The notes under the pieces: model-generated
Database searches by the model: none
What the model was told of the DNA's origin: nothing
What the model saw: only the letters and a program-made list of their open reading frames with translations
Position numbers and translations under genes: made by a program
In this document: piece by piece, positions 1 through 39,283 of the stretch
How the letters are laid out: every line of letters begins with the position of its first letter
Position numbering within the stretch: the first letter of the stretch is position 1
Sequence record: OR769031.1
Reading direction: 5' to 3' (one strand)
Origin: Escherichia phage Carena
Length of the DNA stretch: 39,283 nt

Positions 1-207
1 ATGTTGTCTTTAGATTTTAACAACGAGGTAGTGAAGGCTGCTCCGATTGTAGGTACAGGTGTAGCCGACGGTGCTGCCCGTCTGTTCTTCGGACTGTCCC
101 TTAACGAGTGGTTCTATGTAGCCGCAATTGCCTACACAGTGGCTCAAATTGGTGCCAAGGTAGTCGATGTGATTATCAAATGGAAGAAGGAGGGTAAAGA
201 TGTCTAA
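1..207 (+). CDS. 17.5: Class II holin (T7 gp17.5-like), 68 aa
   Basis: ORF starts at window position 1; AAGGAGG at 39272-39278 gives 5-nt spacing across the wrap; hydrophobic core and basic C-terminus; close match to recalled T7 gp17.5 (MLSLDFNNE...AAPIVGTGVAD...). Confidence 0.9.
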   Translation: MLSLDFNNEVVKAAPIVGTGVADGAARLFFGLSLNEWFYVAAIAYTVAQIGAKVVDVIIKWKKEGKDV

Positions 208-469
208 CGATAAATCTTTGATTCAATTCCTTGAGATGCTGGACACTGAGATGGCTCAACGTATGCTTGCTGACTTGCAGAACGATGAACGACGCACACC
301 TCAACTGTACAACGCAATCGGGAAACTATTAGAGCGCCACAAGTTCCAAGTCTCCAAGTTACAGCCAGACCGTAACATCCTTGGTGGACTGGCAGATGGA
401 CTCGAAGAGTACCAGAACTTGGTAGGCTCCGATGGTCTCACTGAAGATGAGAAGTACACGCTTAACTGA
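200..469 (+). CDS. 18: Terminase small subunit / DNA maturation protein A (gp18-like), 89 aa
   Basis: SD GAAGGAGGG upstream of ATG at 200; same length and position as T7 gp18; overlaps holin stop. Confidence 0.85.
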   Translation: MSNDKSLIQFLEMLDTEMAQRMLADLQNDERRTPQLYNAIGKLLERHKFQVSKLQPDRNILGGLADGLEEYQNLVGSDGLTEDEKYTLN

Positions 470-475
470 TGGTAA

Positions 476-517
476 TACTCAAGGCCACTACATCTAGTGG
501 TCTTTATGGATTATCAA
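476..517 (+). promoter_or_regulatory. RNase III-type processing hairpin (R18.5-like)
   Basis: Motif ACTCAAGG...GG(T)CTTTATGGATTA shared with six other intergenic sites in this window (CAAGGTC...GGCCTTT..TGAT); matches T7 RNase III site architecture. Confidence 0.6.
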
Positions 518-567
518 CACAACTCACGGTGACTCTACGTGAAATCTGAGAAATGGGGAGGGTAGTT

Positions 568-1011
568 ATGCTCAAGAATTTAAAGAGCTACGCCATCGCT
601 GTGGCCTTTGCCTTGGGGATGACCCTTGCGTACAACCACGGCTATGACAAGGCTAACACTAAATGGGAACAGGAGGTGCACAATGAGTACGTTAAGAAAG
701 TTGAGGCGACTGCGGATAAACAGGCTGCTCTCAATGAAGTCTCACGACAATACCAAGAAGACCTTGCGGCGCTGGAAGGCAGCACTGATAGGGTCATTAA
801 TGATTTGCGTAACGATGGTAAGCGGCTGCGTGTCAAACTATCAGCCACCTCACGAGAACTCCAAGCTAACGGTGGATGCCTCGTTGATGGTCGAGCCGAA
901 CTTGACGAAGAGTTTAGTAAGCGTCTTATCGGAGTAACTCAAAGAGGGGATGCGTGGATTAAAGCGCTCCAAAATACAATAACTGAAATGCAATCTAAGA
1001 AGGAGAAATAA
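568..1011 (+). CDS. 18.5: Rz-like inner-membrane spanin (i-spanin), 147 aa
   Basis: SD GGGGAGGG 5 nt before ATG at 568 (the 553 ATG lacks an SD); N-terminal TM helix then long charged coiled-coil; similar to recalled T7 gp18.5. Confidence 0.85.
   Translation: MLKNLKSYAIAVAFALGMTLAYNHGYDKANTKWEQEVHNEYVKKVEATADKQAALNEVSRQYQEDLAALEGSTDRVINDLRNDGKRLRVKLSATSRELQANGGCLVDGRAELDEEFSKRLIGVTQRGDAWIKALQNTITEMQSKKEK
683..937 (+). CDS. 18.7: Rz1-like outer-membrane lipoprotein spanin (o-spanin), embedded in +1 frame of Rz, 84 aa
   Basis: AGGAGG 6 nt upstream of ATG at 683; basic n-region, hydrophobic core, lipobox VSGC, proline-rich mature part; begins MSTLR like T7 gp18.7; entirely inside the Rz gene. 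Confidence 0.8.
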   Translation: MSTLRKLRRLRINRLLSMKSHDNTKKTLRRWKAALIGSLMICVTMVSGCVSNYQPPHENSKLTVDASLMVEPNLTKSLVSVLSE

Positions 1012-1012
1012 T

Positions 1013-1240
1013 ATGGCTACTACAAACTCAAGAACCAGCACACTCTGGACCATCAATGGTCGCTCACCAGATAGCCGTGATGTGTATGACCGCAACAATA
1101 TTGGTCTTCGTGTTGGGCGTATCGACATCCCAGCTTCCGTTATGTTCCAACCTAGTGACATCGACGTGGCTGTATCTAAGACCGACACTATCAAGGCTCT
1201 TGAGAAGCGCATCGCTGACTTAGAGAAATCTGCCAAGTAA
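1013..1240 (+). CDS. Hypothetical protein, 75 aa, between spanin and terminase large subunit
   Basis: AGGAG 7 nt upstream of ATG; starts 2 nt after Rz stop; no TM or signal peptide; C-terminal amphipathic/coiled-coil segment (IKALEKRIADLEKSAK). No counterpart at this junction in T7 as I recall it. Confidence 0.6.
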   Translation: MATTNSRTSTLWTINGRSPDSRDVYDRNNIGLRVGRIDIPASVMFQPSDIDVAVSKTDTIKALEKRIADLEKSAK

Positions 1241-1255
1241 CAATAGGAGGCCACA

Positions 1256-3013
1256 ATGTCTACTCAAGCAAACAAGAATGCGCTCATCGTGGCGCAACTT
1301 AAGGGTGACTTCGTGGCCTTCCTGTTCGTCTTATGGAAGGCTCTGAACTTACCTAAACCAACCAAGTGTCAGATTGATATGGCACGTACACTCGCTAACG
1401 GCGACCACAAGAAGTTTATCCTTCAGGCGTTCCGTGGTATCGGCAAGTCCTTTATCACCTGTGCGTTCGTCGTGTGGGTCTTATGGCGTGACCCTCAACT
1501 TAAGGTGCTCATTGTGTCTGCCTCTAAGGAACGTGCGGACGCTAACTCCATCTTCATCAAGAACATCATCGACCTCTTACCGTTCCTCTCTGAGTTGAAA
1601 CCTCGACCGGGACAGCGAGACTCCGTGATTAGCTTCGATGTGGGATTGGCTAAACCAGACCACTCTCCCTCTGTTAAGTCTGTAGGTATCACTGGTCAGT
1701 TGACTGGTAGCCGTGCTGACATCATCATCGCAGATGACGTTGAGGTTCCTGGTAATAGCTCTACGAGTTCTGCCCGTGAGAAGCTCTGGACGTTGGTAAC
1801 TGAGTTTGCTGCACTACTTAAGCCGCTGCCTACCTCTCGTGTTATCTACCTTGGCACACCTCAAACCGAGATGACGCTCTACAAGGAACTTGAGGATAAC
1901 AAAGGGTACAGCACAGTAATCTGGCCAGCACAGTATCCTCGCAATGATGCTGAGGCTCTCTACTATGGGGACCGCTTGGCTCCGATGCTTAAGGCTGAAT
2001 ACGATGAAGGCTATGAGTTACTTCGTGGTCAACCTACTGACCCTGTTCGATTCGACATGGATGACCTCCGTGAACGTGAACTCGAATACGGTAAAGCTGG
2101 CTACACGCTTCAGTTCATGCTTAACCCAAACCTTAGTGATGCCGAGAAGTACCCGCTACGACTCCGTGACGCTATCGTGTGCGCTGTGGACCCTGAACGT
2201 GCCCCATTGTCTTACCAGTGGTTGCCGAACCGTCAGAACCGCAATGAGGAACTCCCTAACGTTGGTCTGAAGGGTGATGACATCCATAGCTTCCATACGT
2301 GCTCTTCTAGAACCGCTGAGTACCAGTCTAAGATTCTCGTCATTGACCCTAGTGGTCGTGGTAAGGATGAGACCGGGTATGCAGTCCTCTACTCACTGAA
2401 CGGTTACATCTACCTGATGGAAGTAGGAGGGTTCCGTGGTGGCTACGATGATGCTACCCTAGAGAAGCTCGCTAAGAAGGCCAAGCAGTGGAAGGTACAG
2501 ACAGTCGTCCATGAGTCCAACTTCGGTGACGGTATGTTCGGTAAGATTTTCTCTCCGATTCTCCTGAAGCACCATAAGTGTGCCTTAGAGGAAATCCGTG
2601 CTAAGGGCATGAAGGAGATGCGAATCTGCGATACTATCGAGCCATTGATGGGTGCACACAAGCTGGTCATTCGTGATGAGGTTATCCGTGAGGACTATCA
2701 GACTGCTCGTGACCTTGATGGGAAACATGATGTCCGCTACAGTGCGTTCTATCAGATGACCCGTATGACCCGTGAGCGAGGCGCTGTGGCACACGATGAC
2801 CGCATTGATGCTATCGCATTGGGTATCGAGTTCCTTCGTGAAGGGATGCTTGTGGATAGCCGTGTAGGTGAAGAAGAGATGACCCTTGAGTTCCTTGAAC
2901 ATCACATGGAGAAACAGACCATTGGTGGTGATGCTATTCATAGCTACGAGGCTGGTGGCGTGGACATCTACTACGAGGATGATGGAGACTCTAGCTGCTT
3001 CATTGAGTGGTAA
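1256..3013 (+). CDS. 19: Terminase large subunit / DNA maturation protein B (gp19), 585 aa
   Basis: SD AGGAGG; near-identical N-terminus to recalled T7 gp19 ([30 protein letters not shown]); ATPase and nuclease regions conserved. Confidence 0.97.
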
Positions 3014-8911: not shown

Positions 8912-9481
8912 ATGTTTACTTTCATTGCAACCACTACCGCTATCATCTCCACCACACTGGCTATCGTCTTCCTCAAGACTGGTAAGCAAGTCAATGACCA
9001 ACTCAATGCAGCCTATAAGGAACGTAAAGTTCTCAAAGAGAATCTGGCTGAAGGTCATAGTGAACTGGCATCCATGCGCAATTACATTGAGAGATACAAG
9101 CGAGAGACTGAGAGCGACATGAAGTTTGAAAGTGAGCGCACCAAGGCAATCATCACAGACCATGTGAACCGCAACAAGGAACTGAGAGAGCACATTAAGG
9201 AGTTAGAGAAGTTCCGCGATGGCATCCTGTTTAGTGACATCACGTCTATCAAGTTTACTGCTCACATCCCGGATGCTGGATGGAAGCGCACTGAGTTCAA
9301 GCTAGGCATAGGGTCTTGTGGCAAAGAGGTTACATGTTTGCACTGGAAAGAACAGTCGGACCGTTACCTGCTGACACAGACATGCACTGATGGTGAGCGC
9401 AAAGAGTTCACCTATTATAAGAAAGACGTAGCGGGTCGCATTGAGATTGCACGTAAGGTTGCAGACAATACGACTCACTAA
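8912..9481 (+). CDS. Hypothetical membrane-anchored protein in the gene 1.05 slot, 189 aa
   Basis: SD and phi1.1A upstream; N-terminal TM helix (FTFIATTTAIISTTLAIVFL), long charged coiled-coil, Cys-containing C-terminal domain; not present in T7. Confidence 0.8.
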   Translation: MFTFIATTTAIISTTLAIVFLKTGKQVNDQLNAAYKERKVLKENLAEGHSELASMRNYIERYKRETESDMKFESERTKAIITDHVNRNKELREHIKELEKFRDGILFSDITSIKFTAHIPDAGWKRTEFKLGIGSCGKEVTCLHWKEQSDRYLLTQTCTDGERKEFTYYKKDVAGRIEIARKVADNTTH

Positions 9482-32712: not shown

Positions 32713-35700
32713 GTGGATAAGTATAACCCGAACGAACCGCATGAATATGATGCGTTATTTCAACAAGCTGCTGACACACATGGAGTCTCCTATGGCCTTC
32801 TTCGGAAGGTCGGTTGGGTAGAGTCCCGATTCAATCCGAAGGCCCAATCCAAAACCGGGCCACGGGGTGTTATGCAGTTCACTAAGGCAACTGGTCAGGC
32901 TTATGGCCTACTATCTGATGAGGACTTCAACGACCCGGCTAAGTCTATTGATGCTGGCGCTCGATACCTTGCAGACCTCGTTAAGAAGTACAATGGTGAC
33001 GAACTGAAAGCTGCCCTAGCGTACAACCAAGGTGAAGGCCATAATGGTAAGCCACAACTAGAAGCCTACGATTCCGGTAACTTTGCTGGGATTGGGGACG
33101 AAGGGCGAAACTATATCCGTTCACTTCTGGATGTCGCTAAGTCTCCTAAGAGTGGTGACATCGAGTCATTCGGTGGCATCACCCCAAAGGGTAAAGGGAT
33201 TCCGTTTGATGCTGCGATGAGCGGTATCGGGAAGAAAGGAAAGGTAACAACTGAACTCCCTGAGTCTCACTCAATGTCCTTTCAAGGTAAAGAACAGGCC
33301 GCTCCCAATCAGCCGTTCGGTAAAGACTATTGGGAAGCCAAAGGAACTACACTCGACGAAGCTAACGAGCGTTCAACCTTCTTCGGATTCGGTAATGCTG
33401 CTGAAGCAGAACTCTCCAACTCAACCTTGGGTGTGGCCTTCCGTGCTGGTAAGCGTGATAATGGTTTCGATGTTGTTACTGATGTACTTCAACCGACACG
33501 GTTTAACAGCCACATTTGGTCGCCTGAAGAACTCGAAAAGATTCGCAACGAAGTGAAGAACCCGGCGTACATGAACGTAGTGCTTGGAGGTTCCTCTGAG
33601 AATCTGGATGAACTCATCAAGTTAGCCAACGAGAACTATGAGTTGGACGCTAAGGCCGCTGATGCTGGACTTGGTGCGAAACTATCTGCTGGGATTATCG
33701 GTGCTGGTGTGGACCCTCTGACCTACGTTCCAATCGCTGGGACTGCGGCTAAAGGATTCAAACTGGTGAACAAGGCGCTGATTGTTGGCGCACAAGCAGG
33801 TGCTCTTAGCGTTGCCTCTGAGGGTCTGCGTACATCGGTGGCGGGTGGTGATGCTCACTACGCAGAAGCTGCCCTTGCTGGTATGCTGTTCGCTGGTGGA
33901 CTGACTGCTATCGCTGACGGTGTTGCCGCAGGTCTCCGTAAGTCTGGTGCTGAACAGATTGAGAACCCGTTTGCTGCTGCACAGATGCGCTTTGAGGCCC
34001 GTGAGACTGCCCGTAACACTGGTGGGCATGACGCAAGTCGAATGCCTCCTAGTGAAGACCGAGTGTTCTCACAGCACAACGGCGTTGAGTATTCACCTCT
34101 TGAGACCGAACCGGGTGCCGTAGTGTTGCGTGATGGTTCCATTATCAGTGACACCAACTTAGCTAACCCGATGACAGCCAAAGAGTTCGCCGAGGTGGAC
34201 CCTGAACGCGCTGCGTGGGGATTGCCTATGCGTGGACTGAGTGAAATCGGCTTGAGGACTTTACGCTCTGAACATGCCGAAATCCGTGGTCTCGCTAAGG
34301 ACTTAGTGCGTTCACCTACAGGGATGGAGTCTGGCTCACATGGTAAGTTCGGTGCTACCGCATCTGACATCAAAGAGCGACTGCACAGTACCAACCAGCG
34401 AACCTACAATGACCTCTATGCTGCAATGAAGGAAGCAATGGCTGACCCTGAGTGGTCCGTTGGTATGTTCAAGCGTAGTGCTCAAGGTGCCCGTCAGGAA
34501 ATCTATCGCCGTGCTGCTATCGCTATTGAGCGTCCAGAACTTCAAGCCAACTTAACGAAGGCTGAACGTAAGGTGATGGACATCATGAAGGAACACTTCG
34601 ACCTCAAGCGTGAGATGATGGAGAACCCGGCTATGTTCGGTAACAAGGCAACTTCCATCTTCCCTAACAGTCGTCACAAAGGGACTTACGTTCCTCATGT
34701 GTACTCACGGGAAGCCAAGCAGTTGTACGCACAGGCTCTTGGTGGTACTGACGGTTTACAGGAAGCTATTGCTGCAAGCTGGATGACATCGTACCGTTCA
34801 CGTCCTGAAGTTAAGGCCCGTGTGGATGAGATGCTGCTAGAGCAGTTACGGGCATCTCAACCATCAGGTAAGACTGCGGGTACTACACCTAATAAGCACT
34901 CTTCTGTAGACACAGCCAGTTACCAGATGAAACTGGACGATGCGGCTACACAGGCAAGTGATAAGGTAGCAGAACTAAAAGACGTACTTACCAACGCTGA
35001 GAAGCGAGTTGCGGACCGTGAAAGGAAACTCCAGAACTCCAAGGACAGACTGGCTTCGCATGAGGCTAAGCTGAAGGAGTTAGAAGAAAAACTAGCTGCT
35101 AAACCTAATAGCAAAACCATCCCTGTTAAGATTGAGAGCCGGAAGAAGATGATTGAGACCCAGAAGTCTCACGTCCGTGTTAACACAGATCGTCTCGACT
35201 ACATGAAAGGACAGGTTACTAAGGTCCAAGACAGAATCACCAAAGCCACCTCCGAAGCTGAAGAAGCCGCCTCTGCTGTCAAAGGTGCACAAGCTGCTCC
35301 GGCTAAACCTTCAGAGCGCCGGAAGTTTGACACAGACGAGAAGGTGGAACCAAATGTAGACGAAGAGGCTGTGCTTAGTCAGATGGCTGAGAAGTACGCT
35401 ATGGACAAGGCTTATGGCATTGCGAAGACCGATGAGTTCAACTCTTCAAGTGTCATCGACGATAACATTGAGGGTCTCGTAGGGATTGAGAACAACTCGT
35501 TCCTTGAAGCCCGTAACCTGTTCGACTCTGACATGCCAATCACCTTACCGAATGGACAACAGTTCTCTGTGAATGACCTCCGTGACTTCGATATGAAGCA
35601 TGTGATGCCAGCCTATGACCGCCGTATTGATGGTGACATCGCTATCATGGGAGGTACAGGAAAGACTACTGCTGAACTCAAGGATTCCATTATGGCTCTC

Positions 35701-37164
35701 GATAAGAAGTCTGAAGGCAAAGGCACAATGAAAGGTGAAGTGGAAGCACTCAAGGATACCGTTAAGATTCTCACAGGCCGTGCTCGACGCAATCAGGATA
35801 CTATGGGTGACACTATGGTTCGCGCTCTGTCCGATATGTCCTTCTTCACGAAGAACGCATACATGGGCTTGCAGAACCTAACTGAAATCTCTGGTATGTT
35901 GGCTAAGGGTAACGTTCGTGCGATGCTGCATGGTATTCCGGCACTGCGTGACTTAGCATTCCGCAACAAGCCAGTCTCCGGTAGTGAACTCAAAGAACTC
36001 CACTCCATGGTGTTTGGTAAAGAGTTCGACCAGTTAATCCGACCGACTCGTCAAGACATCATTCAGCGACTCCGTGAGTCCACTGATACACCTGATGTTG
36101 CAGCTAAGGTTGTTGGTACGGTTAAGCACACCACTCAAGAGTTGGCTGCTCGCTCTCCGTTCACTAAGTTCCTCAATGGTACTTCCAACTACATTCTGGA
36201 CATGGCCCGTCAAGGTGTCATGGGAGATGTGGTAACTCATGCCATTACTGGTAAGGGTGCCAACAAGTGGATTAAAGGCGACATGCTGAAATCTGCGAGT
36301 ATCTCTAAGGAACAGTGGGAAGGCATTCAGAACCTCATCCGTGAGAACGTCACTCAAGGTGCTGACGGCAAGTACACCTTCAAGGACAAGCGTAAGTTGG
36401 CTAATGACCCGCGAGCTATGGACCTGTGGCGACTGGCTGATAAGGTAGCTGATGAAACCATGCTGAGACCACACAAGGTGTCCTTACAGGATTCCCATGC
36501 GTTTGGCGCTGCTGCTAAGTTGGTCCTTCAGTTCAAGTCTTTCGTAATCAAGTCGATGAACTCTAAGTTTATCCGCTCCGGTAACGAAGCCTTTAAGAAC
36601 CATAGGGCTATGGATATGGCGCTAACCTACGCAATCTCTGGTGGAATTGCTGGTTCCTACTACGTGGCACAGGCCCACTTGAAGGCTGCTGGTCTACCTA
36701 AAGAGCAACAGAAGGACTACTTGAAGAAAGCTCTCGACCCTAAGATGATTGCCTACGCTGCGGCCTCCAGAAGTTCACACTTAGGGTCTCCGTTGAGTAT
36801 CGCTAACTTCGTTATGGGTGCTGCGGGTTATGACCAAGGTCTTATGGTTCGCTCTACGATTCTACCGAAAGGTGATGACAAGCGTGAGCGCAATAAGGCA
36901 GCGACTTCTCGTGACATGGGTGATTCAATTATGGGCGCTATTGGTGAACAGATTCCCGCTCTTGGCTTCGCTGGTGCTACTCTTGCTGCTGGTCGAAATG
37001 CTTATGGTGTCCTTACGGCTCCCAATAAAGTGACCGAGCGTGAGATGATGACTGGTCTGATGAATGCTCATCGTGAGATGGTTCCGAACGACCCAATCAC
37101 TCAACAGATGCTCATTAAGTTCTATGAGGCTAACGGTGTTCACCTTAAGTCTGACAAGAAGTAA
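32713..37164 (+). CDS. 16: Internal virion protein D with N-terminal lytic transglycosylase domain (gp16), 1483 aa, GTG start
   Basis: GTG start 6 nt after AGGAGG; N-terminus MDKY...GVSYGLLRKVGWVESRFNP.A.SKTGPRGVMQFTKATG (SLT motif, catalytic Glu) as in T7 gp16; about 165 aa longer than T7 gp16 because of an internal coiled-coil insertion. Confidence 0.95.
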   Translation: MDKYNPNEPHEYDALFQQAADTHGVSYGLLRKVGWVESRFNPKAQSKTGPRGVMQFTKATGQAYGLLSDEDFNDPAKSIDAGARYLADLVKKYNGDELKAALAYNQGEGHNGKPQLEAYDSGNFAGIGDEGRNYIRSLLDVAKSPKSGDIESFGGITPKGKGIPFDAAMSGIGKKGKVTTELPESHSMSFQGKEQAAPNQPFGKDYWEAKGTTLDEANERSTFFGFGNAAEAELSNSTLGVAFRAGKRDNGFDVVTDVLQPTRFNSHIWSPEELEKIRNEVKNPAYMNVVLGGSSENLDELIKLANENYELDAKAADAGLGAKLSAGIIGAGVDPLTYVPIAGTAAKGFKLVNKALIVGAQAGALSVASEGLRTSVAGGDAHYAEAALAGMLFAGGLTAIADGVAAGLRKSGAEQIENPFAAAQMRFEARETARNTGGHDASRMPPSEDRVFSQHNGVEYSPLETEPGAVVLRDGSIISDTNLANPMTAKEFAEVDPERAAWGLPMRGLSEIGLRTLRSEHAEIRGLAKDLVRSPTGMESGSHGKFGATASDIKERLHSTNQRTYNDLYAAMKEAMADPEWSVGMFKRSAQGARQEIYRRAAIAIERPELQANLTKAERKVMDIMKEHFDLKREMMENPAMFGNKATSIFPNSRHKGTYVPHVYSREAKQLYAQALGGTDGLQEAIAASWMTSYRSRPEVKARVDEMLLEQLRASQPSGKTAGTTPNKHSSVDTASYQMKLDDAATQASDKVAELKDVLTNAEKRVADRERKLQNSKDRLASHEAKLKELEEKLAAKPNSKTIPVKIESRKKMIETQKSHVRVNTDRLDYMKGQVTKVQDRITKATSEAEEAASAVKGAQAAPAKPSERRKFDTDEKVEPNVDEEAVLSQMAEKYAMDKAYGIAKTDEFNSSSVIDDNIEGLVGIENNSFLEARNLFDSDMPITLPNGQQFSVNDLRDFDMKHVMPAYDRRIDGDIAIMGGTGKTTAELKDSIMALDKKSEGKGTMKGEVEALKDTVKILTGRARRNQDTMGDTMVRALSDMSFFTKNAYMGLQNLTEISGMLAKGNVRAMLHGIPALRDLAFRNKPVSGSELKELHSMVFGKEFDQLIRPTRQDIIQRLRESTDTPDVAAKVVGTVKHTTQELAARSPFTKFLNGTSNYILDMARQGVMGDVVTHAITGKGANKWIKGDMLKSASISKEQWEGIQNLIRENVTQGADGKYTFKDKRKLANDPRAMDLWRLADKVADETMLRPHKVSLQDSHAFGAAAKLVLQFKSFVIKSMNSKFIRSGNEAFKNHRAMDMALTYAISGGIAGSYYVAQAHLKAAGLPKEQQKDYLKKALDPKMIAYAAASRSSHLGSPLSIANFVMGAAGYDQGLMVRSTILPKGDDKRERNKAATSRDMGDSIMGAIGEQIPALGFAGATLAAGRNAYGVLTAPNKVTEREMMTGLMNAHREMVPNDPITQQMLIKFYEANGVHLKSDKK

Positions 37165-37165
37165 T

Positions 37166-37188
37166 CAATACGACTCACTAATGGGAAG
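37166..37188 (+). promoter_or_regulatory. Phage RNAP promoter (phi17-like)
   Basis: CAATACGACTCACTAATGGGAAG followed by a GGGAAG...CTTCCC stem-loop. Confidence 0.85.
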
Positions 37189-37235
37189 GCTAACACAGCT
37201 TCCCTCTATCCAACACATTCGAAAGGAGGCTACAG

Positions 37236-39236
37236 ATGGCTAACAAGATTCGTACTGTGATGACTTACCCGCTGAATGGTGCCGTGAACTTCACGATTAC
37301 CTTTGATTATCTGGCTCGTAAGTTCGTCCAAGTGACACTTATTGGTAAAGACCGTAAAGAACTGGTTCTCAATCAGGACTACCGTTTTACCAGTAAGACT
37401 CAAATTACAACTACCCGTGCGTGGACTGCCGCTGATGGCTACCAGATGATTGAGATTCGTCGATTCACTTCGGCTACCGACCGTCTGGTTGATTTTGCTG
37501 ATGGCTCAATCCTCCGTGCATATGACCTGAACATCTCGCAGATTCAAACCCTGCACGTTGCCGAAGAAGCACGAGACCTCACTGCGGATACCATTGGTGT
37601 CAACAATGATGGTCACTTAGATGCTCGTGGTCGTAAGATTGTAAACTTGGCGTATGCCACAAATGACTATGATGCTGTTCCTTTAAAGCAGGTTAAAGAG
37701 CGTGAATCCTCTGCATGGAATGCTGTAACAAAGGCTAACGAACATGCCGACCGCTCCAATAAGGAAGCAAACCGTTCTCGTGATGAGGCCAACCGTGCTC
37801 AACGTGAAGCTGACCGCTCAACTCAACAGGCAGGTGTCTCTACGCAACAAGCAGTTGAGTCCAAGAAGCAAGCTGATCGTTCCAACTCTGAGGCTAACCG
37901 AGCTAAAGGATATGCTGATAGTATGACCGCAAGTGTCGCTGAGGCTAAGAAGCAAGCTGACCGTTCCAACTCTGAGGCCAATCGTGCCCGTGATGAGGCC
38001 AATCGTGCTGCCGGAGAAGTGACTAAAGCTGCTGCTGAGGTTGCCAAGGCTGCTGCACACGTTGAGACCGCTAAGGGACATGCAGACCGTGCGAACACTG
38101 AGGCTAATCGCTCCAAAGGTGAGGCTGACCGTGCTAAGTCTGAGGCCGACAAGTTAGGCAGCATGAATGCACTTGCAGGGGCTATTGAAAGTGTATCAGG
38201 CAGTGATGTACGCTTTAAGGGTAAAGTAAGTGGGCGCAGTCTGACTCTACATAATGATGCTAAAGGCGCTGGGACTCAACCAGTAGACCAAGTGTGGAAC
38301 CAGTGGCGTGGTCAGGACTCTAAGGAGACTGTGTGGGAACAGTGGATTCAAGCTGGGACAAAACGAATGGACTACTATGTGTTCACTAACACCGACCCGG
38401 CAACGTGGCCTGAAGGTCGTTCCAATAGCAAAGGACACCATAACTTCTATGGTGACGTTCTGTTTGCTGGTGGTAACGTCGAGACGCACGGGAACCTTAA
38501 GGTAAACGCAGTTGAGTCTAGACATAACGTGTTCATCTCCGACCAAGCCGCAAGTTTCAAGAGTAACACACATGGTGGTAGCTGGAACCAGTGGACCGGT
38601 AGCTTGAATCCAGACCTACAGCATGATATTGCTGGACAAGGGGACGTTGCATATCTCCTTGAGAGGGCTACAATTTGGGGCAAAGAACACCTGTATGCCA
38701 AGTGCTTATATAACAACGGCACAGGCGCTAACTTCTTTATCAGGCAATATCTGCGAGGCACCTATTTCGATCTACGCTCCGATGGTGTCCTTTCCTGCTC
38801 TTCTGGTTGGAACATCCCACCCGATGGGAACCTGTACATCAAGAAGTACAACTCGTACATTGATGCTTGGGTGAATAAGCGTCTTAGCGAACATGCTTAC
38901 AACAAAAGCGAGACCAACAACTTAGTCAATGGACGCCTAACACAAGGTGCTGCTGATGGTCTATACATCCGTAAGAATGCTGGTTGGTCTGAGGTTTGGA
39001 AAGGCCCTGCTGGTGGTGGTGTTTCAGTTGGTCTCTCACAGGATGTTCGTTGGAGAACCATCTGGATTCAAACTCAAGGCAAATGGAACCCTGTGGAGAT
39101 TGGGGACGATGGGGCTTACTACATTTCGTCGATGGGCGGTTGGTTGACCTTTACAATCTCCAACAACGGGCGTACATTCCGTAACGATGGTGATAGGTCT
39201 TCTGTTCCTACACGCATCCTTGTGCGTAACAACTAA
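37236..39236 (+). CDS. 17: Tail fiber protein (gp17), 666 aa
   Basis: N-terminal ~150 aa conserved with T7 gp17 (ADGY..IE.RR.TS.TDRLVDF.DGSILRAYDLN..QIQT.HVAEEARDLT.DTIGVNNDGHLDARGR.IVNLA); repetitive coiled-coil shaft; divergent distal domain; C-terminus SVP...V.N. like T7. Confidence 0.95.
   Translation: MANKIRTVMTYPLNGAVNFTITFDYLARKFVQVTLIGKDRKELVLNQDYRFTSKTQITTTRAWTAADGYQMIEIRRFTSATDRLVDFADGSILRAYDLNISQIQTLHVAEEARDLTADTIGVNNDGHLDARGRKIVNLAYATNDYDAVPLKQVKERESSAWNAVTKANEHADRSNKEANRSRDEANRAQREADRSTQQAGVSTQQAVESKKQADRSNSEANRAKGYADSMTASVAEAKKQADRSNSEANRARDEANRAAGEVTKAAAEVAKAAAHVETAKGHADRANTEANRSKGEADRAKSEADKLGSMNALAGAIESVSGSDVRFKGKVSGRSLTLHNDAKGAGTQPVDQVWNQWRGQDSKETVWEQWIQAGTKRMDYYVFTNTDPATWPEGRSNSKGHHNFYGDVLFAGGNVETHGNLKVNAVESRHNVFISDQAASFKSNTHGGSWNQWTGSLNPDLQHDIAGQGDVAYLLERATIWGKEHLYAKCLYNNGTGANFFIRQYLRGTYFDLRSDGVLSCSSGWNIPPDGNLYIKKYNSYIDAWVNKRLSEHAYNKSETNNLVNGRLTQGAADGLYIRKNAGWSEVWKGPAGGGVSVGLSQDVRWRTIWIQTQGKWNPVEIGDDGAYYISSMGGWLTFTISNNGRTFRNDGDRSSVPTRILVRNN
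37740..38160 (+). repeat. Coding direct repeats within the tail-fiber shaft (period about 84 bp)
   Basis: AAGAAGCAAGCTGA(T/C)CGTTCCAACTCTGAGGC at 37864 and 37948; CGTGATGAGGCCAA(C/T)CGTGC at 37779 and 37989; encodes repeated ADRSNSEANRA units. Confidence 0.75.
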
Positions 39237-39283
39237 TGGAATACAACGAGGCCACGGATGGTCTCAACAATAAGGAGGACACA

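Follow-up and report, generated by a model that had tools for sequence, protein, structure and literature searches.

Gene 17 of Escherichia phage Carena (OR769031.1; the window analysed here is the whole stretch of 39,283 nt) encodes a tail fibre of 666 aa, compared with 553 aa for T7 gp17, raising the questions of where the additional length resides, how it arose and which part of the fibre determines the host. Our analysis indicates that the product is very probably the lateral tail fibre of a Berlinvirus T7-like podovirus, with a modular architecture, repeats derived from heptads and a recombinant origin. The gene has already been published and annotated, and it encodes a real but ordinary long Berlinvirus fibre of the T7 type; the authors of the Carena genome described the tail fibre as the least conserved protein of the phage (PMC10927641).

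The identification as gp17, together with the two protein lengths, had been proposed in an earlier note on this DNA and was borne out by the ORF and by Pfam, PHROG and PDB matches, among them phrog_4242, 'tail fiber protein', which is matched over its full length (E 4.2e-247, residues 1-666 to profile positions 1-628 of 628). The interval proposed there, 37740-39236, falls in the right gene but misses its start, since 37740 is an internal position at which the repeats set in. A gene 16 homologue (32713-37164) precedes the phi17 promoter and gene 17, and the holin gene 17.5 comes next, which is the arrangement of the T7 group (Studiervirinae). The record is permuted, such that the 68-aa ORF at window nt 1-207 is the counterpart of the CarlSpitteler holin gene. 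The AATACGACTCACTAATGGGAA-type 21-mer has ten matches in the window (three mismatches or fewer), all on the + strand, against a chance expectation of 0, and a promoter is annotated at the equivalent position in FE44, BA14 and Yepe2, where it is called phi17 in the latter two. We found no separate tail fibre assembly or chaperone gene directly downstream of gene 17, the next gene being the holin. Antisense ORFs are also present within the shaft (e.g. 37823-38164, 113 aa), inside a strongly supported gene and in a stretch of repetitive, alanine-rich composition.

Table 1. Features of gene 17 and its upstream region, in window coordinates.
Feature	Position	Strand	Basis
phi17 phage RNA-polymerase promoter AATACGACTCACTAATGGGAA, upstream of gene 17	37167..37187	+	21-mer match
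Shine-Dalgarno AAGGAGG, 6 nt before the ATG of gene 17	37223..37229	+	direct sequence reading
Gene 17, lateral tail fibre protein, 666 aa (car1b_044 / WPJ67461.1)	37236..39236	+	ORF and exact protein match, 'tail fiber protein [Escherichia phage Carena]'
N-terminal tail-docking domain, residues 1-154	37236..37697	+	Pfam PF03906 Phage_T7_tail
Shaft, 22 unbroken heptads, residues 162-315, presumed trimeric alpha-helical coiled coil with a small-residue core	37719..38180	+	heptad layout, autocorrelation
Breakpoint 1, within the shaft coding region, 5' CarlSpitteler-like / 3' FE44-like	37836..37895	+	maximum chi-square
Repeat pair copy 1, KKQADRSNSEANRA	37863..37904	+	37/42 nt identical to copy 2
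Repeat pair copy 2, KKQADRSNSEANRA	37947..37988	+	84 nt (4 heptads) downstream of copy 1
Hinge after the coiled coil, residues 316-334	38181..38237	+	hhalign to T7
Variable beta-rich middle region, residues 335-550 (~215 aa), at the position of the T7 distal half-fibre and pyramid domain	38238..38885	+	sequence comparisons
Junction motif (PPDGNLYIKKY..IDAWVNKRL) and extended linker, presumed alpha-helical, with a 27-aa insertion relative to T7, residues 551-582	38886..38981	+	alignment
T7-type tip domain, residues 583-666 (84 aa), presumed receptor-binding beta-sandwich	38982..39233	+	homology to T7 gp17
Breakpoint 2, within the tip coding region, ~39034	39006..39035	+	mismatch-rate shift
Orphan 3' segment, last 66 codons of gene 17	39035..39245	+	64-94% nt identity (50-nt bins) to the seven closest sampled relatives compared

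Comparison with T7 module by module revealed that the 113-aa excess is made up of 42 additional residues in the shaft and 73 in the hinge, middle and linker, with the N-terminal domain and the tip each one residue shorter. The two ends of the protein are recognizably those of T7. At the N-terminus, the Phage_T7_tail domain scored 171 bits (gathering score 25.2; E 1.8e-50), residues 1-187 matched the solved T7 gp17 N-terminus (7boz, 8e4g; E 2e-66), and the 72% identity of the docking domain to T7 (108/150) agrees with the earlier proposal that the N-terminal ~150 aa are conserved. This domain docks the fibre onto the tail.

At the C-terminus, residues 576-665 matched T7 gp17 462-552 (E 1e-21) and, by phmmer, the solved C-terminal fragment 4A0T/4A0U (E 1.6e-22 for 4a0t_A). 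When functional positions of the T7 tip were taken from PMC8043750, the Carena tip (residues 583-666, 52% identity) was found to keep all the substitution-intolerant glycines as well as D540, S543 and V544, and to be altered at T7 specificity positions, with N501 replaced by Q, D520 replaced by M and the HI-loop arginine (R542) displaced by one residue. An AlphaFold2 model of residues 551-666 had a mean pLDDT of 51, and a Foldseek search of the PDB with it ranked 4A0U/4A0T first, at TM 0.39 and an rmsd above 10 Å, to which we give no structural weight; because the models are of low confidence and the fold search is weak, the assignment of the tip fold rests on sequence homology. As in T7, the fibre would be a homotrimer present in six copies per virion, and the bottom loops of its tip would attach reversibly to the LPS core, placing the tail for DNA ejection.

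The region between shaft and tip is of a different character. The only stretch there with a profile match to T7 is residues 309-340, which include the hinge (SMNALAGAIESV..DVRFKGKV.., hhalign probability 87.7%). Residues 335-575 matched neither T7 nor any solved structure significantly, profile-profile comparison of the middle region with T7/T3 by hhalign matched only the first 32 columns, which are the hinge, and a profile search of PDB sequences with the middle region returned nothing but a chance-level match to a glycoside hydrolase (E 0.06). As for a counterpart of the T7 pyramid domain (residues 371-447), only the DGN..K(Y/W)...(I/L)DA(W/Y) junction could be aligned by eye, and the AlphaFold2 monomer model of residues 316-666, built from a nine-sequence alignment, was unusable (mean pLDDT 37). 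The homologue search returned eight proteins for the distal half and one for the tip, and missed FE44, which represents the 90% cluster to which Carena gp17 also belongs, indicating that the word index is insensitive here and that the alignments supplied to AlphaFold2 were consequently shallow. The pyramid region of the related fibre of Sxt1 could not be modelled by its authors either, even as a trimer (PMC11680406). The earlier view that the distal ~350 aa differ from T7 except for the final residues is thus correct for the middle region but understates the C-terminus, where a complete 84-aa tip domain is retained. With identities to T7 of 25% in the middle and about half in the tip, the distal part is far from a near-copy of T7 gp17.

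Residues 335-575 showed 97.5% protein identity to FE44 and 92.9% to Sekstaphage-1 in tblastn searches, and alignment with 12 fibres of the Berlinvirus type of long gp17 revealed that the 22-heptad, ADR/ANR-rich shaft and the 27-aa linker insertion are both present and that the junction residues are invariant. Mean pairwise identity among the 13 fibres of this type is 90% in the shaft and 83% in the tip but 40% in the middle (335-550). The middle module is missing from the 435-aa fibres P0005 and P0007, and some relatives have the same middle with a different C-terminus.

The shaft, which is 35% identical to T7, had been described in the earlier note as repeat-expanded, with direct repeats of an 84-bp period acting as substrates for slippage or recombination. 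Autocorrelation of its amino acid sequence was highest at lag 7 (z = 11.2), with peaks at all multiples of 7 and an unremarkable lag 28, and the nucleotide autocorrelation peaked at 21, 42, 63, 84, 105, 126 and so on, with 105 and 21 the strongest. Of the 22 heptads, 21 carry Ala or Val at position 3 and 20 carry Ala or Ser at position 6, and none contains Pro. A generic repeat finder reported families spaced 105, 105, 126, 63, 147 and 84 nt apart; because all of these spacings are multiples of 21, they point to heptads and not to an 84-bp unit. The period of the shaft is therefore 7 aa (21 nt), and its nucleotide repeats mirror, in the DNA, the heptad pattern x-E-A-(D/N)-R-(A/S)-x, with no tandem duplication. 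By extension from T7, such a shaft would form a rigid coiled coil exceeding that of T7 by about 6 nm.

Growth of the shaft by duplication of an 84-bp unit, which would still be an active substrate for slippage or unequal recombination altering fibre length, is very improbable, despite several observations in its favor. Two copies of KKQADRSNSEANRA do occur 84 nt apart, as the earlier note had seen, with exact runs of 14 and 17 nt; deletions between short direct repeats are known in T7-group phages; the shaft is exactly six heptads longer than that of T7 (22 compared with 16); and distant fibres vary in the span matched by the shaft query, with pEa_SNUABM_57 and Cornix differing by 35 aa, or five heptads. 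The six-heptad excess and the 35-aa differences indicate that insertions or deletions of heptad units happened over deep time. However, the two KKQADRSNSEANRA copies, although the best repeat pair, are not adjacent, and Tandem Repeats Finder detected no tandem array in the shaft even at a minimum score of 30 (0 rows); 84 nt is one among the multiples of the 21-nt period. The copies have nine of 14 codons identical compared with 6.1 expected from codon usage alone (P = 0.086), a synonymous identity not above chance and thus no sign of recent duplication or gene conversion. Moreover, each of the 13 aligned fibres with a Carena-type shaft has 22 heptads in it, although they span three genera and several distal modules, and Bas103 has the same shaft. 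Among the phage records listed, the shaft query length was constant at 62% to 96% identity, with sole exceptions of two to seven extra residues located after the shaft, as is the apparent 7-aa gain of Bas103. Because shaft length is constant among relatives, we regard it as a trait of this fibre type and not the product of recent slippage; the shaft is indeed longer than that of T7, but its proposed expansion by recent slippage, and with it the role of the repeats as slippage or recombination substrates, is not sustained.

In addition to its modular architecture, gene 17 has a mosaic pattern of relatedness, as revealed by sliding identity, mismatch lists and maximum chi-square analysis with permutations. 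The first 600 nt of the gene have four mismatches to CarlSpitteler (99.3% identity) compared with 89 to FE44, and the next ~1200 nt (gene nt 601-1800, covering half of the shaft, the hinge, the middle, the linker and the beginning of the tip) share 98.6% identity with FE44. The first switch is supported by 126 informative sites (maximum chi-square 107, with 0 of 2000 permutations as extreme), and at the second, at gene nt 1799, the mismatch rate to FE44 rises from 0.013 to 0.203 (chi-square 163). The 3' segment that follows encodes a protein differing from FE44 at only two of 66 positions, and the best match to 39000-39283 was 285P, at 84.5%. Identity recovers beyond gene 17: across the intergenic spacer and the first part of the holin gene, most 50-nt bins lie at 94-100% and none falls below 84%. 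On these comparisons, gene 17 is a recombinant with a CarlSpitteler-like 5' part, an FE44-like center and an orphan 3' end that lacks a close relative; for some segments, the recombinant partner may just as well be FE44 or CarlSpitteler. The conserved shaft sequence acted as a site of homologous crossover at which the distal cassette was swapped, potentially providing a route of host-range shift in Berlinvirus-type fibres.

It is extremely unlikely that this three-part pattern is an artefact of assembly or sampling, or reflects uneven selective constraint, instead of recombination. The genome does derive from a short-read assembly, but coverage was 11,338x and two assemblers produced an identical contig (PMC10927641). 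Constraint does vary along gene 17, but the switches are abrupt and lie chiefly at synonymous sites, with third-position identity to FE44 of 0.65, 0.98 and 0.47 across the three segments, a pattern that protein constraint cannot produce; the permutation test argues in the same direction.

Which part of this recombinant fibre sets host range is a separate question; the earlier note had pointed to the distal part and to a receptor (LPS type) different from that of T7. All tested Studiervirinae of the BASEL collection, including Berlinvirus members, depend on the LPS core (waaC/waaG) (PMC8594841), and Sxt1 adsorbs to ECOR50, to which T7 and T3 do not (PMC11680406). Taken with the retained tip domain and its altered specificity positions, these data suggest that Carena likely has a shifted or broadened specificity for the LPS core rather than a different class of receptor. 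Nevertheless, the tip, the known specificity determinant of T7, is conserved among Berlinvirus-type fibres while the middle varies, raising the possibility that the middle region (335-550), and not the tip, is the main host-range determinant, in which case it would offer an additional, lateral site for binding surface glycans or outer-membrane proteins. No other part of the fibre is nearly as poorly conserved as the middle, which is swapped as a cassette; Sxt1, which binds ECOR50, combines this middle with a slightly altered tip; and Huss et al. reported that binding by the T7 tip involves its side as well as its bottom loops (PMC8043750). We nonetheless consider this somewhat unlikely: Pfam and PDB profile searches detected no carbohydrate-binding or enzymatic domain in the middle region, its high variability could reflect relaxed constraint on a structural spacer, and variation in the tip among these fibres clusters at the equivalents of the T7 specificity loops, as it should if specificity still resides in the tip. 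A fuller version of the proposal, in which the conserved T7-like tip would make only a generic contact with the LPS core, and the hypervariable middle cassette, of an FE44/Sxt1 type recently acquired by Carena, would be the second lateral receptor-binding module setting host range, is unlikely. If it were true, this cassette would have given Carena a broad range across E. coli core types and possibly genera, and the near identity of its tip protein to that of FE44 despite ~20% DNA divergence would mean that the tip is co-adapted to the cassette.

Since the long fibre architecture has already been described, for Sxt1, these results have little importance beyond good annotation. Our analysis adds a precise module map, evidence that the repeats reflect a heptad pattern whose length is fixed and not an array prone to slippage, and two statistically clear breakpoints, which show a very recent exchange of a 1.2-kb distal cassette with an FE44-like phage. 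The map is of use in fibre engineering: receptor-binding cassettes of T7-like phages could be swapped at the conserved shaft and at the DGNLYIKKY junction, both of them natural splice points.

Comparison with known fibres places Carena gp17 close to T7 gp17, for which structures of residues 371-553 (4A0T/4A0U) and of the N-terminus (7BOZ/7EY9/8E4G) have been solved. The two share gene position, promoter arrangement, docking domain, heptad shaft, hinge motif (N.N.LAGAI..V...V.FKG), a DGN-type junction before the linker and the tip. They differ in the number of heptads, in the core position occupied by Phe, Tyr or Trp in many T7 heptads and by Ala or Ser in Carena, in a middle that cannot be aligned by sequence or profile, and in the longer linker. 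The gp17 of Erwinia phage FE44 (AGY36941.1) has the same 666 aa and belongs to the same 90%-identity protein cluster as the Carena fibre, yet DNA identity between the genes is only ~85% in the 5' 600 nt and only ~80% in the 3' 200 nt; the two have a recently exchanged central cassette in common and not the whole gene.

Sxt1 (Sekstaphage-1) combines a Teetrevirus backbone with a Berlinvirus-type fibre of the same long architecture as Carena. Its 'extended lateral tail fibre' has been described as having residues inserted in the pyramid region and, over 27 aa, in the linker, a tip folded like that of T7 and a host range that an adsorption assay showed to be broader (PMC11680406). It differs from Carena in an N-terminal domain that is more T3/T7-like (75% nt identity) and in ~20% of the last 66 residues of the tip, loop positions included. 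CarlSpitteler (Bas68), the closest whole-genome relative of Carena, has a shaft of equal length and matches over the first 600 nt, corresponding to the docking domain and the first third of the shaft; in contrast, its 655-aa gp17 has a BA14-type middle (~50% nt identity) and a tip that is ~77% identical at the nucleotide level. Bas103 joins a Carena-type shaft to another distal module and has a separate assembly gene.

In T-even gp37/gp38 and in the side fibres of P2, Mu and lambda, conserved stretches serve as crossover points for the exchange of distal receptor-binding cassettes. Carena differs from these systems in lacking a downstream chaperone gene and in that its crossover site would lie in the coding region of a coiled coil.

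Gene 17 of Carena, which encodes the lateral tail fibre, is real and was correctly recognised, but it is ordinary and has already been published; exact-sequence look-up identified its product, gp17, as WPJ67461.1, 'tail fiber protein [Escherichia phage Carena]'. The earlier note had placed the start of its feature at 37740, which is where the repeats begin; the gene itself starts at 37236. The phage-polymerase promoter preceding it has ten copies in the window, compared with none expected by chance, with the consensus AATACGACTCACTA(A/T)TGGGA(A/G); those at 9467 and 37167 do not differ in sequence. Carena is a Berlinvirus isolated in Abidjan on E. coli C (PMC10927641), and the 93-94% identity to nasanit, CarlSpitteler and ErnstBeyeler that we found by megablast agrees with the published 93.4% to CarlSpitteler (Bas68) (PMC10927641). 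The window, 39,283 bp, comprises the whole Carena record, which is permuted: it opens at the start codon (ATG) of the holin gene 17.5 and closes 47 nt past gene 17, a start and end layout shared by the BASEL record of CarlSpitteler. It follows that the window must include, in its interior, the physical ends of the genome and the terminal repeat, probably at an ORF-poor stretch near 3.0-3.7 kb.

Features of gene 17, its expression signals and its mosaic structure (window coordinates unless marked gene nt)
Feature	Position	Strand	Remarks
Gene 17 ORF, 666 aa	37236..39236	+	one long ORF in the region
Phage-polymerase promoter, 21 nt, AATACGACTCACTAATGGGAA	37167-37187	+	before gene 17
Ribosome-binding site AAGGAGG	37223-37229	+	before gene 17
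Promoter copies	3102, 8831, 9467, 9991, 12275, 16058, 23908, 24901, 29325, 37167	all +	
Repeat pair KKQADRSNSEANRA	37863-37904 and 37947-37988		37/42 nt identical
Mosaic segment 1	gene nt 1-600		closest CarlSpitteler, 99.3%; 4 mismatches to CarlSpitteler, 89 to FE44
Mosaic segment 2	gene nt 601-1800		closest FE44, 98.6%; 17 mismatches to FE44; CarlSpitteler diverging from nt 660
Mosaic segment 3	gene nt 1801-2001		none close, 68.7-84.3% to Berlinvirus-type fibres compared; 40 mismatches to FE44
Breakpoint 1	gene nt 601-660 = 37836-37895		inside shaft; maximum chi-square
Breakpoint 2	gene nt about 1799 = about 39034		inside tip; chi-square 163

Comparison of gp17 with the solved T7 protein revealed three matching stretches: residues 1-187 (T7 1-188, E 2e-66), a weak match of residues 217-334 (T7 176-293) covering the shaft end and hinge, and residues 576-665 (T7 462-552, E 1e-21), which also matched 4A0T and 4A0U, the solved T7 C-terminal fragment. 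The whole protein matched phrog_4242 ('tail fiber protein', E 4e-247) in PHROGs, and the Pfam family PF03906 matched residues 1-154 only (E 1.8e-50). This docking domain is 72% identical to that of T7, bearing out the proposed conservation of the N-terminal domain. Identity fell to 35% in the shaft (162-315) and 25% across the hinge, middle and linker, and was 52% in the tip (583-666). Thus the claim that the distal part is unlike T7 save for its final residues holds for the divergent middle but not for the tip, all 84 residues of which are homologous. Of the 113 residues by which gp17 exceeds its T7 counterpart, the shaft gains 42 and the hinge/middle/linker 73, the N-terminal domain and tip each being one residue shorter.

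The shaft had been described as repeat-expanded, with direct repeats of an 84-bp period as substrates for slippage or recombination. Written in rows of seven, residues 162-315 make up 22 heptads without a break, following the pattern x-E-A-(D/N)-R-(A/S)-x, with Ala or Val at position 3 in 21 of 22, Ala or Ser at position 6 in 20 of 22, and no proline. Amino-acid autocorrelation was maximal at lag 7 (z = 11.2), and all multiples of 7 reached significance, with lag 28 (z = 6.9) lower than lags 35 and 42. Nucleotide autocorrelation peaked at 21, 42, 63, 84, 105, 126 nt and onward, and the repeat-finder families had spacings of 105, 105, 126, 63, 147 and 84 nt, each a multiple of 21; Tandem Repeats Finder reported no repeat in the region. 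The 84-bp period is thus a single repeat pair within a periodicity of 21-nt multiples. Nine of the 14 codons in this pair are identical, against the 6.1 that codon usage by itself predicts (P = 0.086), indicating that the DNA similarity follows from protein similarity. A second 21-nt pair 84 nt apart (38268-38288 and 38352-38372, 76% identical, AGTQPVD / AGTKRMD) lies in the middle region adjoining VWNQW and VWEQW motifs, and probably arose by chance or is a weak internal beta-repeat. The - strand of the shaft coding region (37818-38164) contains several antisense ORFs (87-113 aa), which its repetitive, GC-rich, stop-poor codon pattern probably explains. The T7 shaft, in comparison, consists of 16 heptads whose core positions are occupied by Ala and often by Phe/Tyr/Trp, and that of Carena is longer by exactly six heptads, or about 6 nm given the standard coiled-coil rise of ~0.148 nm per residue.

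Slippage or expansion of the Carena shaft was not supported by its relatives. No indel occurred in the shaft across 13 aligned fibres carrying the Carena-type shaft (Carena, FE44, Sekstaphage-1, CarlSpitteler, nasanit, BA14, 285P, Yepe2, IME390, PhiV-1, S523, EG1 and BSP161), which span three genera and several different distal modules. In tblastn with residues 141-335, every phage match listed from 62% to 96% identity had an equal span, except for 2-7 extra residues aligned past the shaft (285P-type GSNGKD; Bas103); otherwise, length differences among the matches listed appeared only in far more distant fibres (35-41% identity). The long shaft is thus an old trait, fixed in this type of fibre, in agreement with mean pairwise protein identities among the 13 fibres of 88% for the docking domain, 90% for the shaft, 57% for the hinge, 40% for the middle (335-550), 68% for the junction and linker, and 83% for the tip. 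The variable part of this fibre type is the middle, neither shaft nor tip.

Sliding identity and mismatch lists divided gene 17 into three segments, the first breakpoint having a chi-square of 107 over 126 informative sites with none of 2000 permutations as extreme. Identity to FE44 at third codon positions was 0.65, 0.98 and 0.47 in segments 1, 2 and 3, while first and second positions remained at 0.95-0.99 in all three, a pattern due to recombination and not to uneven protein constraint. Downstream, in 50-nt bins that begin ~35 nt before the end of the window and extend across the holin and small-terminase genes, identity to the Berlinviruses compared was mostly 90-100%, with a few lower bins. 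The last 66 codons (39035-39233), only 80% identical to FE44 in DNA, contain 37 codon differences from FE44 but just two amino-acid differences, whereas 9-14% of residues differ in other phage pairs of similar DNA divergence. This small excess of protein conservation may reflect strong selection for this one tip sequence, or the tip may have co-adapted with the FE44-type middle. Among the matches listed, the closest phage to the 3' end of gene 17 was 84.5% identical in DNA. For the query 39000-39283, three records were counted at a match of at least 99%, none among the 25 matches listed; these are presumably short matches and may involve the two Shigella phage records in the organism count.

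Related fibres combine these regions differently. The 435-aa database fibres P0005 and P0007 pass from a short shaft directly to the junction motif and tip without the middle module, and CICC 80001 (P0001), P0006 and P0008 fuse an FE44-type start of the middle to unrelated C-termini; the CICC 80001 record begins within its own tail fibre gene. IME390, EG1 and Bas103 carry a T7-type docking domain on the Carena-type shaft. In Bas103 (Escherichia phage EmilieLinder_Bas103; locus L015, 1078-3414), the shaft, with a few substitutions, matches that of Carena in type and length, the distal part after it is unrelated, and a 'tail fiber assembly protein' is encoded separately after the fibre gene; this is a different distal-module solution on a shared shaft. 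Together, these combinations indicate that apparent module boundaries recur where docking domain and shaft meet, inside the shaft or at its end, and in the neighbourhood of the DGN(L/I) junction.

Within the tip, positions from the T7 deep mutational scan of Huss et al. (PMC8043750) showed that Carena keeps the substitution-intolerant glycines G476, G510, G522 and G532, as well as G479, G521, D540, S543 and V544. The host-discriminating positions N501 and D520 are altered to Q614 and M633, and the HI-loop arginine is displaced by one residue (T7 S541 to R654, R542 to S655). Ambiguous bases in the PhiV-1 gene 17 record (locus L010) give X residues in the HI-loop region (NDXDRXS), making comparisons at those positions unreliable. 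Residue 591 (about 39006-39008), which by alignment matches the start of the T7 tip, adjoining G476 and G479, is Pro in a KG-P-AGGG stretch and Ser, His, Arg or Thr in all 12 other fibres of the type. In the structure prediction of the tip, as suggested earlier, the model of residues 551-666 reached a pLDDT of just 51, and Foldseek ranked 4A0U/4A0T first but with a TM of 0.39, so that this match is sequence-driven. A monomer prediction for residues 316-666 had a mean pLDDT of 37 and could not be used. When the middle was compared with T7 and T3 by profile, the hinge alone aligned (87.7% probability, 32 columns), and a profile search of PDB sequences with the middle found nothing credible. The middle may have a pyramid-type fold of enlarged size, or another fold.

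Our analysis adds to published work a heptad explanation of the repeats, a module map and two recombination breakpoints. The fibre of Sekstaphage-1 (Sxt1) was 92.9% identical to that of Carena over residues 335-575 in our comparison. As published, it clusters with Berlinvirus fibres; its 'pyramid' region carries six insertions and its helical linker one of 27 aa, its tip was modelled as T7-like (54% identity), and its R655 is located elsewhere than the T7 arginine (PMC11680406). The host of FE44, according to its record, is Erwinia sp. 60. The view of the earlier note that the distal part determines host range with altered specificity is reasonable and agrees with published work on near-identical fibres (PMC11680406); the different receptor it proposed is not established. 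In BASEL, all Studiervirinae tested, including Berlinvirus, need the LPS core (waaC, waaG), with residual infectivity kept (PMC8594841). A shifted or broader LPS-core specificity than that of T7 is more likely than a different receptor. Sekstaphage-1 has a broader host range of 15 of 72 ECOR strains, among them all T7 or T3 hosts and seven more, spanning core types K-12 and R1-R4, and ECOR50 is adsorbed by Sekstaphage-1 only (PMC11680406).
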